This document shows positions 43,016-62,970 of a stretch of DNA of 64,000 nt, one piece after another (within the stretch, counting starts at the first letter, position 1; each line of letters starts with the position of its first letter). Location of the stretch: IMG/VR virus record IMGVR_UViG_3300035539_000076. One strand, written 5' to 3'. A program made the translations under genes and the position numbers. This DNA is from an uncultured virus (IMG/VR IMGVR_UViG_3300035539_000076). Taxonomy: Duplodnaviria > Heunggongvirae > Uroviricota > Caudoviricetes. The notes under the pieces are model-generated. The model saw only the letters and a list, made by a program, of their open reading frames with translations, was not told the DNA's origin and made no database searches.

Positions 43016-43446
43016 GGGGACGACCTGGTATCGACGGGCATTATCGGTAACACCTTGGGCAGCAGAGGTTGACTATCCTCTTAAAACAAGTTGCTTAAAT
43101 ATAAACAACGAAAAACCAATGCCAATGGCTGCCTAGTCGCGCCATTCAGTGTTATTAGTAAGTTACAGTCTACTGAATATAACACTGCCATTTTAACAAG
43201 ACTGTCGTATAGAAGATTGCCTGCGGTCTGACTCACTCTATACGTATTATACAAAGACCGTTCTGGCACTTTGTTGATCTCTTGAGGGGAAATCCTTTTC
43301 AAAGGCTAGACTAAATAAAAGAGATATACCAAATTCTCGGCTAACTACACCATGAATTGGTGAACATTAAAGTAGTTAAAGCTGTAAAGACAACCAGGGT
43401 GTTACTGAATGTTCGGACGCGGGTTCGAGTCCCGCCGTCTCCACCA
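43016..43446 (+). ncRNA. ssrA: tmRNA (about 431 nt), tag frame ...NEKPMPMAA*
   Basis: 5' GGGGACG-ACCTGG-TATCGAC; 3' GACGCGGGTTCGAGTCCCGCCGTCTCCACCA; G3-U wobble acceptor stem; tag ends GCT GCC TAG at 43128-43136. Confidence 0.93.
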
Positions 43447-43451
43447 TAAAA

Positions 43452-43539
43452 GGAGATATAGTCTAATTGGTAAGGCAGTAGGTTGCTAACCTACCGTGGT
43501 TAATCCCACTTGCTGGTTCGAATCCAGCTATCTCCGCCA
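43452..43539 (+). tRNA. tRNA-Ser(GCT)
   Basis: Acceptor GGAGATA/TATCTCC, anticodon arm GTAGG-TTGCTAA-CCTAC, long variable arm, GCTGG-TTCGAAT-CCAGC, discriminator G, encoded CCA. Confidence 0.95.
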
Positions 43540-57154: not shown

Positions 57155-57443
57155 ACTAAAAAGAGTAATACAACTACTGAAAAAAGATTTTGTTTGGAGA
57201 AACGGCCAAGAACTAGATAAATTCAACCCATATGATACCAAGTTTTTTAAGTTCTTAGAAGGGGAACAAAAGATATTGTTGGATACCAACAGTATAGTCA
57301 AGTTCGAAACTCCGACAGGTAAAAAATCTACCATAGAATGGTCGGTGAATGTTGCAGATGTCGAAGATGTTGAAAACTTGTACAAACAGCCAGATGTCAT
57401 AAAGGTGGGTAACATGTCTTTAGAAGATAAGAGCTGGTTATAA
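57135..57443 (+). CDS. Hypothetical protein
   Basis: 3' part of track ORF 56994..57443; exact start uncertain. Confidence 0.5.
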   Translation: MVNNRDELKRVIQLLKKDFVWRNGQELDKFNPYDTKFFKFLEGEQKILLDTNSIVKFETPTGKKSTIEWSVNVADVEDVENLYKQPDVIKVGNMSLEDKSWL

Positions 57444-57559
57444 TGATGGTTTATCTCGGGGTAATATTGTTTTCTATTTTTATAATTGTTTTGGTAGTGG
57501 GGATCAGAATAGATTTAGATATAATTCAACAGAACACAAATTTAAAGGAGGAATGTTCA

Positions 57560-57850
57560 ATGGTTAAGTACATTACTGAACAAGAAAAAGAAATGTTGGA
57601 TGAGGTGACTAATTTTTGTAAAGATTATATCGGAACAACGCTTGAAGAGATGTTATCTGCTTTACAAAAGGAATTTCATATCTCTGCCAATGACATCAGC
57701 AAAGAAAGTGAAAAAAGAGGAATTACTGAAGACAAAAAAATTAAACAAGCTGAGGGAATATTGGTTCTTACTCAACCAAAAAGCATTTTCCTTATCGTTC
57801 AAAAAACAAACGGCAAAATAACGTCTATGGAAATAGAAACGTGTTCATAA
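57560..57850 (+). CDS. Tandem paralogue A
   Basis: MVKYITEQEKEMLDEVTNFCKDYIGTT..; SD AAGGAGG; upstream in-frame extension from 57443 possible. Confidence 0.7.
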   Translation: MVKYITEQEKEMLDEVTNFCKDYIGTTLEEMLSALQKEFHISANDISKESEKRGITEDKKIKQAEGILVLTQPKSIFLIVQKTNGKITSMEIETCS

Positions 57851-57882
57851 CAAAATCACTCAGACAACAGGAGGGGAATTTA

Positions 57883-58170
57883 ATGGCTATCACTAAGGAA
57901 AACGAAAGGTTGTTGGATTCAGTTACTAATATTTGTAAAAATTATATTGGAACAACAACTGATGAAATGTTATCTGCTTTAACAAAGGATCTTGGTATTC
58001 CGGAGGGAAATGTTAGCAAAGAATTTGATAAAAGAGGAATTACTGAAGACAAGAAGTTAAAACAAGCTGAAGGGATAATAGTTTTTACAGATTCAATAGA
58101 CATTCTTCTTATTATCCAAAAAACAGACGGCAAAATAACATCTATGGAAATAAAAAAAAGTCTACAATAA
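57883..58170 (+). CDS. Tandem paralogue B
   Basis: MAITKENERLLDSVTNICKNYIGTT..; KRGITEDKK.KQAEGI and QKT.GKITSMEI shared with A. Confidence 0.7.
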   Translation: MAITKENERLLDSVTNICKNYIGTTTDEMLSALTKDLGIPEGNVSKEFDKRGITEDKKLKQAEGIIVFTDSIDILLIIQKTDGKITSMEIKKSLQ

Positions 58171-58332
58171 AATCACTTGATATATATGTTTTTTACCAAG
58201 GCAGGGGAACCTGCCCTTTTCTTTTGCCTTTTCATATGGTATAATTTGTATAAGATATTCTTTCTAAAAACTGCTTTGCAGTTAATATAAAAGGTTTGGA
58301 GTAAACCAAAAACTCTGAAAGGATGTGAAATT

Positions 58333-59154
58333 ATGTATTACAAAGACAGTTTAAGTGTTTTGCCTGAAGAAGGTATATTACCGGTTGATGTGAGGTTTGA
58401 ATTGTTGGTGAAGATAGTGGGAAACATCTTGTATTTCGAGAAGAAAGAAAAAGGTGTAAAACACTTTCTGAACAACCACATCTACAAGTCTTTCGAGCAA
58501 AACAAGAAATCATCCAACTTGATGTGGGCTGCAATAGCTGACTTTATGAATTCAGGCGTTTCCATGATCAACGATTCCATCGATGAGAATCAGGCTAAAT
58601 ATTCCGCATGGGATTATCTAGAAACGGTATACGATATACAAATAAACGGCAAAGCCACTCATCAGAAAAGGTATTTTAACGAAGATATGATTAAGTATTT
58701 AGCCGACAGGATGGATAACGGAATATTAACAGACGATATCATGGTCGATTATTTGGATAGTAGTTTGGAGTTCACATATGTGAGGGATAACAAGAGGTAT
58801 ATCCTGGTAGCTAATGATTATATAAATCAACTAAAACCTTATTTTCCTAACGGCGAATACAACATCATTGTGGATATATACAACTCCAGATACGGTGTTC
58901 TCGAGGAATTAGAAACTGATTTGTATAAGGTAATACAGTTCTTGAATTATGCCGAGTTTTCCGTGCAGGATGACAAACATGTAGATACTTCTCGTCAAAT
59001 GCAGGGAATAATATTCACAGCAAAAGGTTCTGTTGAACGATTAGAAAAAACTGTACAGAAATTCAGGAGAGTGATAGAAGATAGTAGGGTTGTGAAAGAT
59101 TATAAGAATATAATCCCTTATGCAGAAATTTTTGACAATTATGAAGATAAATGA
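58333..59154 (+). CDS. Hypothetical protein
   Basis: 273 aa; TGGTATAAT promoter at ~58237. Confidence 0.7.
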   Translation: MYYKDSLSVLPEEGILPVDVRFELLVKIVGNILYFEKKEKGVKHFLNNHIYKSFEQNKKSSNLMWAAIADFMNSGVSMINDSIDENQAKYSAWDYLETVYDIQINGKATHQKRYFNEDMIKYLADRMDNGILTDDIMVDYLDSSLEFTYVRDNKRYILVANDYINQLKPYFPNGEYNIIVDIYNSRYGVLEELETDLYKVIQFLNYAEFSVQDDKHVDTSRQMQGIIFTAKGSVERLEKTVQKFRRVIEDSRVVKDYKNIIPYAEIFDNYEDK

Positions 59155-59408
59155 TATAATTTGTATATAATAATACTACCTTTACTAAATATTAGTAAAA
59201 TAGCTGGCAAGACCTAAGGGTCTTGCTTTTTCTTTATCTATATGTTATAATAAAAATAATCCATAGTGAAATTTTTTTAAAATTTCCTTTTGCTCGCAAG
59301 ACCTTAGGGTCTTGCTTTTTCTTTATCTGTATGTTATAATAATTTTGTCATTATTATATGCGAGACGCCGATATATTTTATATACGCAGGGCTATTGTCC
59401 TGCATTTT
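59132..59408 (+). ncRNA. Three tandem promoter-terminator units, candidate small-RNA array
   Basis: Promoters 59132-59160, 59223-59251, 59312-59340 (all N17, TGn-TATAAT); hairpins 59207-59226, 59296-59315, 59386-59403. Confidence 0.55.
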
Positions 59409-59588
59409 CTATTTTTTAGAGTAAAAACCACCACCACGTAATACAAAATCCATCTTTCCATAAAGTCTTTCCATAACATCGCCACATCTTCCACATATAA
59501 CTGTTTTTTGTTTATCATATTCCTCTATAGTCATACTTACTTTAGATACATGTCCACAGTTAACACATTTAAAGTTGTAAGTTGGCAT
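59409..59588 (-). CDS. Second FmdB-family zinc ribbon (59 aa, not in ORF track)
   Basis: MPTYNFKCVNCGH...ICGRCGDVMERLYGKMDFVLRGGGFYSKK*; SD AAGGAG. Confidence 0.85.
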   Translation of the reverse strand: MPTYNFKCVNCGHVSKVSMTIEEYDKQKTVICGRCGDVMERLYGKMDFVLRGGGFYSKK

Positions 59589-59715
59589 ATAAACATCTCC
59601 TTATATAGTATTCTTCTATATTATACAACAAGATCATGTGTTTGTATAGGTAAAAAAAGAGGCGCGTGGTGCGCCGTCTTTATTCTTCACCCGACAAATC
59701 GGGCTGAGTAAAAGA

Positions 59716-60120
59716 TTATCTGATATACTCTATACATATTCCTCTGCCATTGGTTTTTAAAAAATTTTCTATATAACGATTTAAATCTTTTTCATCTTCA
59801 TCGTCAGTAGGAACTATTGAAATTCTTTTTACTTCTTCATCTCCGTTTCTATATTCTTTATAACCAACCAAATTATAATGAAGTTCTTGGTCTTCATATG
59901 CTTGTTCTGGATCAACCATAAATCTTTCGTAATAATCCTCAATAAATCTCCTAATTTCTTCAGCTTGTTCTTTTGAATACATTTCATATTGGTCTGCTCT
60001 ATCATTTCTTAAAAATGTGAAATTTCCTTTCGAACCCCAAATTCTTTGGTCTTTTTCTCTTGTTTCATAGTTTTCATCAAAATCTCCTTCAATTATTTCC
60101 ATAAAATTAACTAATTTCAT
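59716..60120 (-). CDS. Acidic hypothetical early protein
   Basis: 134 aa, preceded by repeated leader cassette. Confidence 0.7.
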   Translation of the reverse strand: MKLVNFMEIIEGDFDENYETREKDQRIWGSKGNFTFLRNDRADQYEMYSKEQAEEIRRFIEDYYERFMVDPEQAYEDQELHYNLVGYKEYRNGDEEVKRISIVPTDDEDEKDLNRYIENFLKTNGRGICIEYIR

Positions 60121-60211
60121 ATTAAAACTCCTTTCCTCAGCCAGCCTTGCGGTCTGGTCTTACGAGGGCAGATTAGAATATTTTCTAATCCTTACATATT
60201 ATATATACCAA
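60118..60211 (-). promoter_or_regulatory. Promoter + structured leader + SD cassette, copy 1
   Basis: 94-bp direct repeat of 61021-61114 with 6 mismatches. Confidence 0.8.
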
Positions 60212-60259
60212 GAATTTTCATTTTTTATTTTCTGTATAGGTAAAAAAAGAGGTGCGTGT

Positions 60260-60559
60260 TCAGCCTCTTGAAATTTTCTTTAAATTTGCCAAGGCTATTT
60301 CTTCAGCCCATGACAAAATGTTAAAATCATTTAATTCTTCTAGGCCATAACGGCCTATTTTGTCTTTGATTCTTTCTAGCTCAAGTATTTCTTGAGCTTT
60401 TTTCTTTTTTGCATCTTCCGCAATTAAATGCGGAAATAAAATTTCTTTTAATTCTTCCTCAAAATCGTCAAAAGACGATTTTGGGATACTTTCTACTTTT
60501 AATTCATATTCCTTTTTCATCCATGATTTGATGGAATCTACCTTATCTTTCAATGTCAT
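60260..60559 (-). CDS. Hypothetical early protein
   Basis: 99 aa, SD AAGGAGGG. Confidence 0.7.
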   Translation of the reverse strand: MTLKDKVDSIKSWMKKEYELKVESIPKSSFDDFEEELKEILFPHLIAEDAKKKKAQEILELERIKDKIGRYGLEELNDFNILSWAEEIALANLKKISRG

Positions 60560-60629
60560 ATAATAATCCCTCCTTCGGGTATTATTGATTTGTCAGAATT
60601 ATAGGCTTCCGACACGTAGCCTTTGTTAC

Positions 60630-60695
60630 TGACCTGTCTCATCAGTGGCAGGAGGTCATCCCTACCAGACGAGGGCAGAACCCTCGTTTCGACAG
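60630..60695 (-). ncRNA. Type II hammerhead ribozyme
   Basis: Minus strand CTGTC-GAAA-CGAGGG(TTCTG)CCCTCG-TC-TGGTAGG(GATGACCT)CCTGCCA-CTGATGA-GACAG-GTCA: intact core and three stems. Confidence 0.9.
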
Positions 60696-60699
60696 TGGC

Positions 60700-61023
60700 T
60701 TAAACGTACTTAACGAATCCGGGCACAGCCACAATGTGCCCTTTTTCATTTCGAAGAGCTTCCCCAGTGTTTGGGGATACTACATCGTTTCTATCGGTAG
60801 CTTGTGCTACCATTGCTGATACTACGTAGATGGTATCTTTTTCAGGTGCAGGTAAACCTTCTACACCTGTGGATCTTGATTCTTTAACTTCAAAACCGTT
60901 AAGTCCTTCAACGGTTTTTGTTTCTGTTTTTACTCTGGGAATAATCCCAGAGGGTTGGATGGTTATTGTTTCTGATCCTTTTTTAATATTTAATGGGTGG
61001 GGTGTGCAATTTATTATATTCAT
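60700..61023 (-). CDS. Phage protein with N-terminal NxTPH motif
   Basis: MNIINCTPHPL..IQPSG..RV..GLPAP..IYVVS..RNDVVSP. Confidence 0.75.
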   Translation of the reverse strand: MNIINCTPHPLNIKKGSETITIQPSGIIPRVKTETKTVEGLNGFEVKESRSTGVEGLPAPEKDTIYVVSAMVAQATDRNDVVSPNTGEALRNEKGHIVAVPGFVKYV

Positions 61024-61114
61024 ATTAAATCTCCTTTCCTCTGCCAGCCTTGCGGTCTGGTCTTACGAGGGTGGACTAGAATATCTTCTAATCCTTACAT
61101 ATTATATATACCAA
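61021..61114 (-). promoter_or_regulatory. Promoter + structured leader + SD cassette, copy 2
   Basis: Direct repeat of 60118-60211. Confidence 0.8.
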
Positions 61115-61194
61115 CATTTTTTGATTTTTTTCATTTTATTATATGTTAGTTTATATAGGTAAAAAAAAGAAAGAGAGCTTTCGCTCTCCCTTTT

Positions 61195-61374
61195 TTATAT
61201 TATCAGAACTAGTAGCAATACTGCTACTGTTCCAACTTGCAGCACACCAAGTGCTGCAAGCGGTCCTACAAACACAAGAACAAATAATACTGGTACCAAT
61301 AATAATAAATACGCAGGTCCAACAATAACTAACATCAATAAAGAAAACAAAACAGAAATTAAAAAATTAAACAT
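61195..61374 (-). CDS. 59-aa fully uncharged membrane protein (not in ORF track)
   Basis: MFNFLISVLFSLLMLVIVGPAYLLLLVPVLFVLVFVGPLAALGVLQVGTVAVLLLVLII*; SD AAAGGAGG; third leader copy upstream, terminator downstream. Confidence 0.75.
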   Translation of the reverse strand: MFNFLISVLFSLLMLVIVGPAYLLLLVPVLFVLVFVGPLAALGVLQVGTVAVLLLVLII

Positions 61375-61530
61375 ATAATGTCCTCCTTTAGCTGCCAGCC
61401 GATTGGTCTGGACTTACGCTAATTTTTTCATGTTACATATACCAAGGATTTTCTAATTTTTATTTTACCGTTCAACAACAACCTTTCGTGATACAATCTA
61501 TAATGAACATAGACTAGGGAGGTTTTATTA

Positions 61531-62970
61531 ATGAAAAGTTTAACAAAAATGGCTTCCCAAATGGTTCCTCAAGGATATGGTGTAGAAGACCATTTGGATA
61601 GAGATATATACCAAGAATATTCGCAAAAACAGAGAAAAAAAGATAAAAAAAGAGTATTGAAAAATAATGCTATGGGTGCTGCTTTAGCTGGTGGAGCAAT
61701 AGGTGCTGGGCTTGGTGCTGCGTTAGGCCACAAAGGACAAAAAGCTTGGCAACAAGCTGGAGTTGATTTTCCTTGGCTTAAGACAAAAGCGGGATTATTA
61801 GGTGGTGCCGCTGGAGCTGGTATTGGTGCTACTTCAAGTATTGCTGGATTAGCCAACGCTACAAACAAAGAAAGAAAAAGACAGGAGAAAACAGCTAGTA
61901 TAAATATGCAAAAGATAGCTGCATTTTCTGCTGGAGTTGATTATGTTTTATACAATGACAACGTAGAACCTATGTTAAAACTTGCCAAATTAACTGAGAT
62001 AGAAAAAAGAAAATTACAAGATATGAGGGCAAGAGATTATCAAAGTATGAGTGATGTAGATCGAAGATATTTTAATGATTTTAAAGAAAATGAAAAAAAG
62101 TGGAATAGGGAAGAAACATGGAGAAAGCTTTTAGGGGGTATGGGAACTGGTGCATTAGTAGGAGCCGGTGCTGGTGCTATAAGAGGGGCTACAAAATCAA
62201 TACCAACAGACAATAATGCGCCAAATCCAGCAGATAGACTTCCGGGGGTTGTACAAAAAAGCATAGCTGGAGTAGATACTATTACAGGGGCGGGTTCTCC
62301 TGATCAAAATCAAACCCCTCCTCAAGCAAACCCTAGTAATACGCCTAACAAATGGGGTAATGCATTAAAAGGTGCTGCAGGCTGGGGAGCTGCCGGTGCT
62401 GCTGCAGGTGTTGCTGGTGGATGGATAGCTGATCGTGTAGCCAAGAAAAAACGTCAAGATCAAATAGACGAATATTCTTACACTAAAGCTTTAAAAGGTG
62501 GAAGTCCATATAGGCCTGCATATGATGCGGCTATGAATAGATTGAAAACTGCTTCAGACCATAGCATATCTGCAACTGTAAAAATAGAAGATGACTTTAA
62601 GTTTGCTAAAGAAGCTTATGCCAACCTTGGAAAGTTCATGCAATCTTTGAGAAATACTAGTCAAAACGCTGGCAAGTCTATGCAACAATTAAACAAAGCT
62701 AAAGGTAAGTATAAAAATTTCCATTCTGATTTAGGCAAAGGATATTTATCTAAATCATTAAGTTCACAGGCTTCTGGAGCTAAAGAGGTTGGAGGTTATA
62801 ACAAATTACATAAGGTGTATAACAGCAATAATATGTCAGGGAAAAAAACTCAAATAGCTGAAAGTAGAGATTTGAGAAAAGCTCAAATTGATCTTGAGGT
62901 TTCTAAAAAAACAAACAAAAATCCATATAGTAAAAAAATAGATTATGATTACGCTTTAAACAGAAAATAG
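61531..62970 (+). CDS. Large glycine-zipper protein with several internal KxA motifs
   Basis: TKMAS, EKTAS, QKIAA, LKLAK, LKTAS, FKFAK; four GxxxG-rich segments; SD GGGAGG. Confidence 0.75.
   Translation: MKSLTKMASQMVPQGYGVEDHLDRDIYQEYSQKQRKKDKKRVLKNNAMGAALAGGAIGAGLGAALGHKGQKAWQQAGVDFPWLKTKAGLLGGAAGAGIGATSSIAGLANATNKERKRQEKTASINMQKIAAFSAGVDYVLYNDNVEPMLKLAKLTEIEKRKLQDMRARDYQSMSDVDRRYFNDFKENEKKWNREETWRKLLGGMGTGALVGAGAGAIRGATKSIPTDNNAPNPADRLPGVVQKSIAGVDTITGAGSPDQNQTPPQANPSNTPNKWGNALKGAAGWGAAGAAAGVAGGWIADRVAKKKRQDQIDEYSYTKALKGGSPYRPAYDAAMNRLKTASDHSISATVKIEDDFKFAKEAYANLGKFMQSLRNTSQNAGKSMQQLNKAKGKYKNFHSDLGKGYLSKSLSSQASGAKEVGGYNKLHKVYNSNNMSGKKTQIAESRDLRKAQIDLEVSKKTNKNPYSKKIDYDYALNRK

Follow-up and report, generated by a model that had tools for sequence, protein, structure and literature searches.

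A chain of three promoter-terminator units with predicted small-RNA cargo in an uncultured phage

What does a phage encode in a gap between two converging genes that is filled with promoters and terminators and carries no protein gene? This question is raised by a short segment of the 64,000-nucleotide sequence of an uncultured virus of the Caudoviricetes that we analyzed (hereafter, the window). The daisy-chained array of promoters and terminators noticed in the initial annotation of this DNA is confirmed: three successive promoter-body-terminator units follow at the 3' side of an ORFan gene, with sigma70-type promoters at 59132, 59223 and 59312, and about 40 bp lie between each promoter and its intrinsic terminator that are free of open reading frames and mutually unrelated. 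We consider it quite probable that discrete RNAs are made from this array, more probable than any single function that one might assign to them. Our reading, which we put forward as possible rather than probable, is that the three chained units yield three different small RNAs that would base-pair with mRNAs in trans; while the anatomy is directly seen, transcription is predicted from it, and base-pairing is suggested by analogy to sister units at other loci.

Anatomy of the array and its neighboring genes

The features of the locus are as follows.

58333..59154, + strand: 273-aa ORFan gene, with terminator 1 as the predicted end of its transcript
59132..59160, + strand: promoter P1, a perfect TTGACA-N17-TATAAT with an extended -10 box, overlapping the last codons of the 273-aa ORF
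59167..59206, + strand: predicted body of RNA 1, with a start at about 59167 as deduced from the spacing to the -10 box, and an AU-rich hairpin at 59181-59199
59207..59253, + strand: cassette copy 1, with terminator hairpin (59207-59226), T5 and promoter P2 (-35 at 59223-59228, -10 at 59246-59251)
59258..59295, + strand: predicted body of RNA 2, with an AU-rich hairpin at 59268-59286
59296..59342, + strand: cassette copy 2, with terminator hairpin (59296-59315), T5 and promoter P3 (-35 at 59312-59317, -10 at 59335-59340)
59347..59385, + strand: predicted body of RNA 3, weakly structured
59386..59417, + strand: terminator 3, a distinct hairpin (59386-59403) with a T-rich tail that overlaps the stop codon of the convergent gene; no promoter follows
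59409..59588, - strand: gene of 59 aa for an FmdB-like zinc-ribbon protein, convergent and last of the leftward block (PF09723, E 7.7e-9; phrog_385 and phrog_1076)

Most of what the initial annotation had described in this gap was borne out by the sequence and by a script check. This holds for the perfect promoter P1, for the 47-bp cassette repeated with a period of 89 bp and two mismatches (one loop base and one tail base), for the TTGCTT box located exactly 17 bp in front of TATAAT in both cassette copies (59223-59251 and 59312-59340), and for the third hairpin that closes the set. A TG dinucleotide precedes the -10 boxes of P2 and P3 as well (extended -10). The embedded -35 box is composed of the last four bases of the stem and the first two T residues of the tail; the further statement that each terminator contains the -35 box of the next promoter is therefore true of terminators 1 and 2 only, as terminator 3 has no promoter downstream. 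Shuffling the surrounding 20 kb 200 times never produced three chained TTG-N20-TATAAT boxes on either strand, and the 183.5-kb record introduced below contains only three perfect consensus promoters, P1 among them. The predicted RNAs are about 63-65 nt long, and the three units fold with predicted z-scores of -4.2, -4.2 and -2.2. The absence of open reading frames from the unique segments also stood: none of the 15 start codons in the array, on either strand, is backed by a Shine-Dalgarno site (best pairing, -3.1 kcal/mol). No likeness was detected among the three bodies, since 162, 469 and 433 of 500 shuffles scored equally well.

A search for further copies of the 47-bp repeat, which the initial annotation had proposed, had a mixed outcome. 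The repeat is absent elsewhere in the 77-kb assembly to which the window belongs, but the 183-kb record contains one further site of the hairpin pattern with three mismatches. The sole match in a scan for the exact cassette pattern was the identical 183-kb record, and metagenome scans by protein alignment and with the cassette pattern gave no matches. Rfam yielded no match at gathering score over the array (best overlapping match, E 1.7), GenBank phages yielded none to positions 58200-60700, and no homologs of the bodies were found by sequence in GenBank phages, in the genome records G005-G008 or in Rfam. The -10/start region of P1 (59151-59172, + strand) is 86% alike over 22 nt to 58236-58257 (+ strand), the corresponding region of the promoter preceding the 273-aa gene, which may point to a shared origin or an operator.

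Over 65,650 bp, the 77-kb assembly and the 183.5-kb IMG/VR record G001 (82% complete) are 99.998% identical, and the runs in which the sequence is best represented are labeled as oil-field metagenomes. No RNA dataset is listed among the 22 runs with the sequence, which speaks neither for nor against transcription. The host likely belongs to the Thermotogota, as judged from homologs of two phage proteins: the best PDB match of the phage ThyX is T. maritima TM0449, and four of the 45 matches among SSB homologs carry a taxon name, three of these being Mesotoga or Kosmotoga. The array fills the entire gap between its two convergent neighbors. The 273-aa ORFan belongs to no Pfam or PHROG family; it has three relatives with 89, 70 and 48% identity, no further ones among 1.8 billion representatives, and no usable match among structural look-alikes. 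In a related 185-kb phage (G005; terminase 74% identical), it has no tblastn match and hence would not be a needed partner of units such as these. A scan with the FmdB-like protein retrieved, besides itself, only relatives with 33-40% identity.

Conservation at the locus and recurrence of the design

Relatives of the locus were compared in four runs, from contigs only. The X8 contig aligns without gaps over 59065-59658 with 26 differences; among the 15 that are listed, one falls into the array (59132-59408, 277 bp) and nine into the 5' 66 bp of the FmdB-like gene, whereas the 114 bp at the 3' end of that gene are free of them. The upstream flank of X8 is a diverged allele, by eye the 70%-identical P0003. 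The array thus appears to be retained beside diverged flanks, yet the invariant block exceeds the array and extends 114 bp into the FmdB-like gene, so that the conservation may reflect a recent recombination tract. Three substitutions were seen among the relatives, at 59180 and 59392 (both in X11) and at 59310 (X8). The change at 59310 weakens hairpin 2 from -12.9 to -7.8 kcal/mol, that at 59392 weakens hairpin 3 from -11.4 to -7.3 kcal/mol, and that at 59180 breaks the CTACCT tract, a proposed anti-Shine-Dalgarno element. All three are uncompensated and consequently count against tight constraint. A 61-nt contig of X11 aligns only from 59280 and possibly represents a variant of unit 2, which is partly covered in X5, X6 and X11. 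No gene between these two cassettes was seen in the contigs of the four runs.

Is the design restricted to this phage? When pairs of TTGCTT-N17-TATAAT boxes spaced by 45-75 bp were searched for, six loci emerged: the array itself, three records from a single phage family (6-7 chained units), a chain of 4-5 units in a temperate phage, and one locus that is not an array. Four of the five non-self loci are chains of promoter-body-terminator units. In the phage family, one cassette of about 50 bp is used twice, and the TTG box is embedded in several different hairpins, two of which had been selected by the scan pattern itself; between relatives, the arrays of this family differ by one entire unit, and they have no Rfam match. 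A generic scan for three promoters returned more than 123 matches. Among the 80 loci fetched from it (81 strand matches), two, the present array and the L018 contig, carry terminators in both intervals as judged by a strict filter that misses bulged or large-loop hairpins, and most of the others are promoter stacks without terminators, or chance. L022 and L297/L299 were rejected as arrays.

Longer daisy-chains of 4-7 units are present in unrelated phages at L018:1400-2190 (- strand), L019:1040-1720 (+ strand), L020 and L021:1280-1700, several of their bodies having C/U-rich tracts; they offer better material than the present locus for a study of the family. At many of the loci L023-L102 (e.g., L046, L060, L069 and L086), in large phages, two or three near-consensus promoters are stacked at a spacing of 70-100 bp and terminators are lacking; purine-rich tracts often accompany them.

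Two loci closer to the array deserve attention. In G005, unit A, unit B, a gene for a cytosine methylase-like protein (named from its sequence by eye) and unit C follow each other with a repeated terminator (G005:C1:156433-157983, - strand; L287:16433-17983). This chain adjoins a homolog of the gene at 61531 and lies in the same plastic neighborhood as the present array; its -35 boxes are located outside of the hairpin, and its bodies are not homologous to the present three. A solitary unit resides in G001 (G001:C1:158258-158416, - strand; L014:18258-18416) between co-directional genes. The strand opposite to it carries, by eye, a 28-codon ORF with a Shine-Dalgarno site. The cassette had been called expandable in the initial annotation, and the number of units indeed varies in arrays elsewhere, as gut-phage relatives differ by one entire unit (7 vs. 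6) and a gene has been inserted into the G005 chain. At the locus itself, however, the X8 contig spans the array without gaps.

Terminator/promoter junctions in this phage and in known systems

In this phage, terminators closely trailed by a -10 box also join protein genes, several of them without a TTG at the -35 position, and a nearly identical tail of T-tract and extended -10 box, likewise without TTG, lies between two genes of an unrelated phage. Judged by these junctions, the embedded -35 box is a frequent economy, neither required nor defining.

Junctions, units and spacers of this kind invite comparison with several known systems. CRISPR arrays, viral mini-arrays and type III antitoxin repeats have a repeat-spacer architecture, and the array, with its unique segments of about 40 nt, resembles a CRISPR array in look. 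Each of its repeats is a terminator plus a promoter, so that its units would be made by transcription, unlike processed CRISPR RNAs. We rejected a CRISPR array or mini-array because there is no Rfam match and no cas family among the scanned neighbors, and a type III antitoxin array because the bodies differ, each ends in a terminator, the downstream gene is convergent and no toxin family is present among the scanned neighbors. The phage antisense RNAs oop of lambda and sar of P22 are short promoter-to-terminator RNAs of 60-80 nt; they are single and cis-antisense to a known gene. The predicted RNAs of the array are also short promoter-to-terminator phage RNAs, but three of them are chained and they overlap no translation start. 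To our knowledge, few phage-encoded trans-acting small RNAs are known, and a literature search, with most subscription papers outside of its reach, turned up no report of phages with chained small-RNA units. In the tandem sibling small RNAs PrrF1/2, OmrA/B and AbcR1/2, sequence is common to the siblings, and a longer RNA, PrrH, can arise when the first terminator is read through (PMC4211561). The array likewise consists of small RNA genes in tandem; its bodies are unrelated, and it is the promoter and terminator that are repeated instead. The word "phage" does not occur in the review on sibling RNAs (PMC4211561).

The PeSL (promoter-early stem-loop) cassettes of the T4-type phages RB49 and phi1 are repeats in which a sigma70 promoter is fused to a terminator stem-loop that can extend over the -35 box (Arbiol et al. 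2010, PMC2839356); the embedded -35 box is hence a known economy and not a novelty. According to the same report, PeSLs end in a Shine-Dalgarno site and a start codon, flank protein genes at about 50 copies per genome, and populate a plastic, ORFan-rich region in which recombination between the copies shuffles the cargo (PMC2839356). The cassette of the array is, too, a sigma70-like promoter with a stem-loop terminator overlapping the -35 box. Its bodies, in contrast, contain neither a Shine-Dalgarno site nor a gene, the cargo being non-coding segments of about 40 nt; the exact cassette exists in two copies as opposed to about 50, with junctions of different sequence present elsewhere in the phage; and the phage is unrelated, a sequence likeness of PeSLs to the array cassette not being shown. 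PeSL-like recombination between copies was not seen at the present locus, and a one-unit indel was seen in the analogous gut-phage array. What is new relative to PeSLs is the cargo without Shine-Dalgarno site or gene, whereas the principle of the terminator/promoter junction was already known. With due reserve, the units of the array might be described as PeSL-like cassettes with small RNAs as cargo, the latter plausibly being base-pairing regulators.

Possible functions of the predicted RNAs

The initial annotation had interpreted the array as a source of three RNAs of about 60 nt that act as antisense regulators or decoys, and our analysis supports this in part. Three short RNA units are supported by the anatomy and by the recurrence of the design. 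In the base-pairing model, the sigma70 polymerase of the host would fire at the three promoters, each transcript would terminate at the next hairpin (transcription, termination and early timing are all predicted), and the resulting three RNAs would pair in trans with mRNAs, most likely those of the host. Base-pairing is the weakest step of this model, as it rests on sister units rather than on these three.

Other explanations have to be weighed against it. The units could be empty or decaying gene cassettes of the PeSL type, i.e., junctions remaining after small-gene loss or local duplication that are perhaps transcribed into functionless RNA. The same junction tail does precede protein genes in this phage and in another one, the methylase gene sits within the G005 chain, recombination among PeSLs is on record (PMC2839356), and changes that weaken the hairpins are tolerated at a locus whose conservation may reflect a recombination tract. 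Yet PeSLs end in the Shine-Dalgarno site and start codon that the array bodies lack, their excision leaves one junction and not three with unrelated 40-nt spacers, no relative with a gene between these cassettes was seen, and the -10 boxes and their spacing are intact in all three units. We regard empty cassettes as unlikely, if still the foremost of the alternatives. Next to it in rank, and unlikely as well, is that the array acts in cis at the point where the gene blocks converge, by blocking leftward read-through or by soaking up host RNA polymerase, with the RNAs as by-products. This would suit an array that occupies the entire convergent gap and starts with one of so few perfect promoters; moreover, the leftward transcript of the FmdB-like gene finds no U-tailed terminator at hairpins 3 and 2, the minus strand scoring at hairpin 1 only. 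However, one bidirectional terminator would suffice for such a task, the solitary G001 unit sits between co-directional genes, and chains elsewhere carry 6-7 units with distinct structured bodies.

Least probable among these alternatives, in our judgment, are RNAs that serve as decoys for proteins, for instance as Hfq sponges or as mimics of an RNA that restrains a host defense nuclease. For units 1 and 2, the predicted fold is an AU-rich hairpin followed by a terminator hairpin that ends in a U tail. Of 300 shuffles, 299 are more available for pairing than unit 2 itself, a property that suits a structural ligand better than a seed. The bodies share no common motif, though; Rfam, CRISPR repeats and antitoxin RNAs included, gave neither a match at gathering score nor an E-value below 1.7; and a dedicated partner gene is lacking, with the upstream ORFan missing from G005.

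To assess base-pairing itself, we scored the accessible contiguous helices that each unit can form at predicted translation starts and compared the scores with those of dinucleotide-shuffled sequences. For the three array units, 90, 299 and 212 of 300 shuffles were as good against 204 starts of the phage itself, as were 15, 17 and 19 of 25 shuffles against 446 candidate starts (195-kb union); whole-duplex energies without accessibility gave nothing either (6, 16 and 11 of 40 shuffles). Antisense action through the two pyrimidine tracts pointed out by the initial annotation found no backing in these results, as the own-phage translation-start targets do not exceed chance and one relative alters the CTACCT tract. 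Since the three units fail on starts of their own phage, any targets would belong to the host or to the part of the phage genome that the record lacks. Among the sister units, the solitary G001 unit reached -19.6 kcal/mol on its own starts (2 of 300 shuffles) and mirrors the ribosome-binding sites of several own genes. Over 18 nt, unit C of G005 is perfectly complementary to the start region of a gene 52 kb away, at G005:104658 (1 of 250 shuffles), and it scores -21.6 kcal/mol on its own gene set vs. -14.8 on a foreign set; unit A is borderline (15/250), and unit B is negative (75/250). Among the 14 bodies taken from G002-G004, which were parsed automatically and in part faultily, one passed as well (1/60 shuffles). 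Of the 21 units tested in all, 3 passed at about 2% or better, against an expectation of 0.4 (P about 0.01 by a hand estimate), the shuffle null leaving room for inverted remnants of ribosome-binding sites. The class thus likely includes anti-translation-start RNAs, the array's own three units not being among those that passed.

Because the cassette is the same kind of junction as that found between the protein genes of this phage, recombination between copies would allow RNA cargo to be gained, lost or exchanged. A bolder version of the base-pairing model, doubtful to us, would view the array as a battery of regulatory RNAs that can be edited by recombination, the cassette being the repeat and each spacer of about 40 nt a guide that has a transcript of its own and is directed at a different host mRNA. 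If so, the phage could add, drop or swap host targets one unit at a time. The same design, with up to seven units, exists in unrelated phages. If real, such arrays would add to the phage's control over its host a modular layer that has been overlooked and that annotation pipelines count among intergenic DNA. They are detectable from the nucleotide sequence alone, each unit can be tested as a 90-bp construct, and the terminator/promoter junction, being compact, lends itself to the multiplexed expression of small RNAs.

Further elements were noted in the window. Small ORFs (135 and 109 aa) form a tandem duplication at 57443-58170 (+ strand; about 80% DNA identity), and a repeated structured 5' leader with a promoter motif precedes three leftward genes (60118-60231, 61021-61134 and 61372-61465, - strand). 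A phage-encoded tmRNA followed by tRNA-Ser(GCT) lies at 43016-43539 (+ strand), and a type II hammerhead ribozyme (RF02276; 42.1 bits, above gathering) is found between two small leftward genes at 60628-60694 (- strand).
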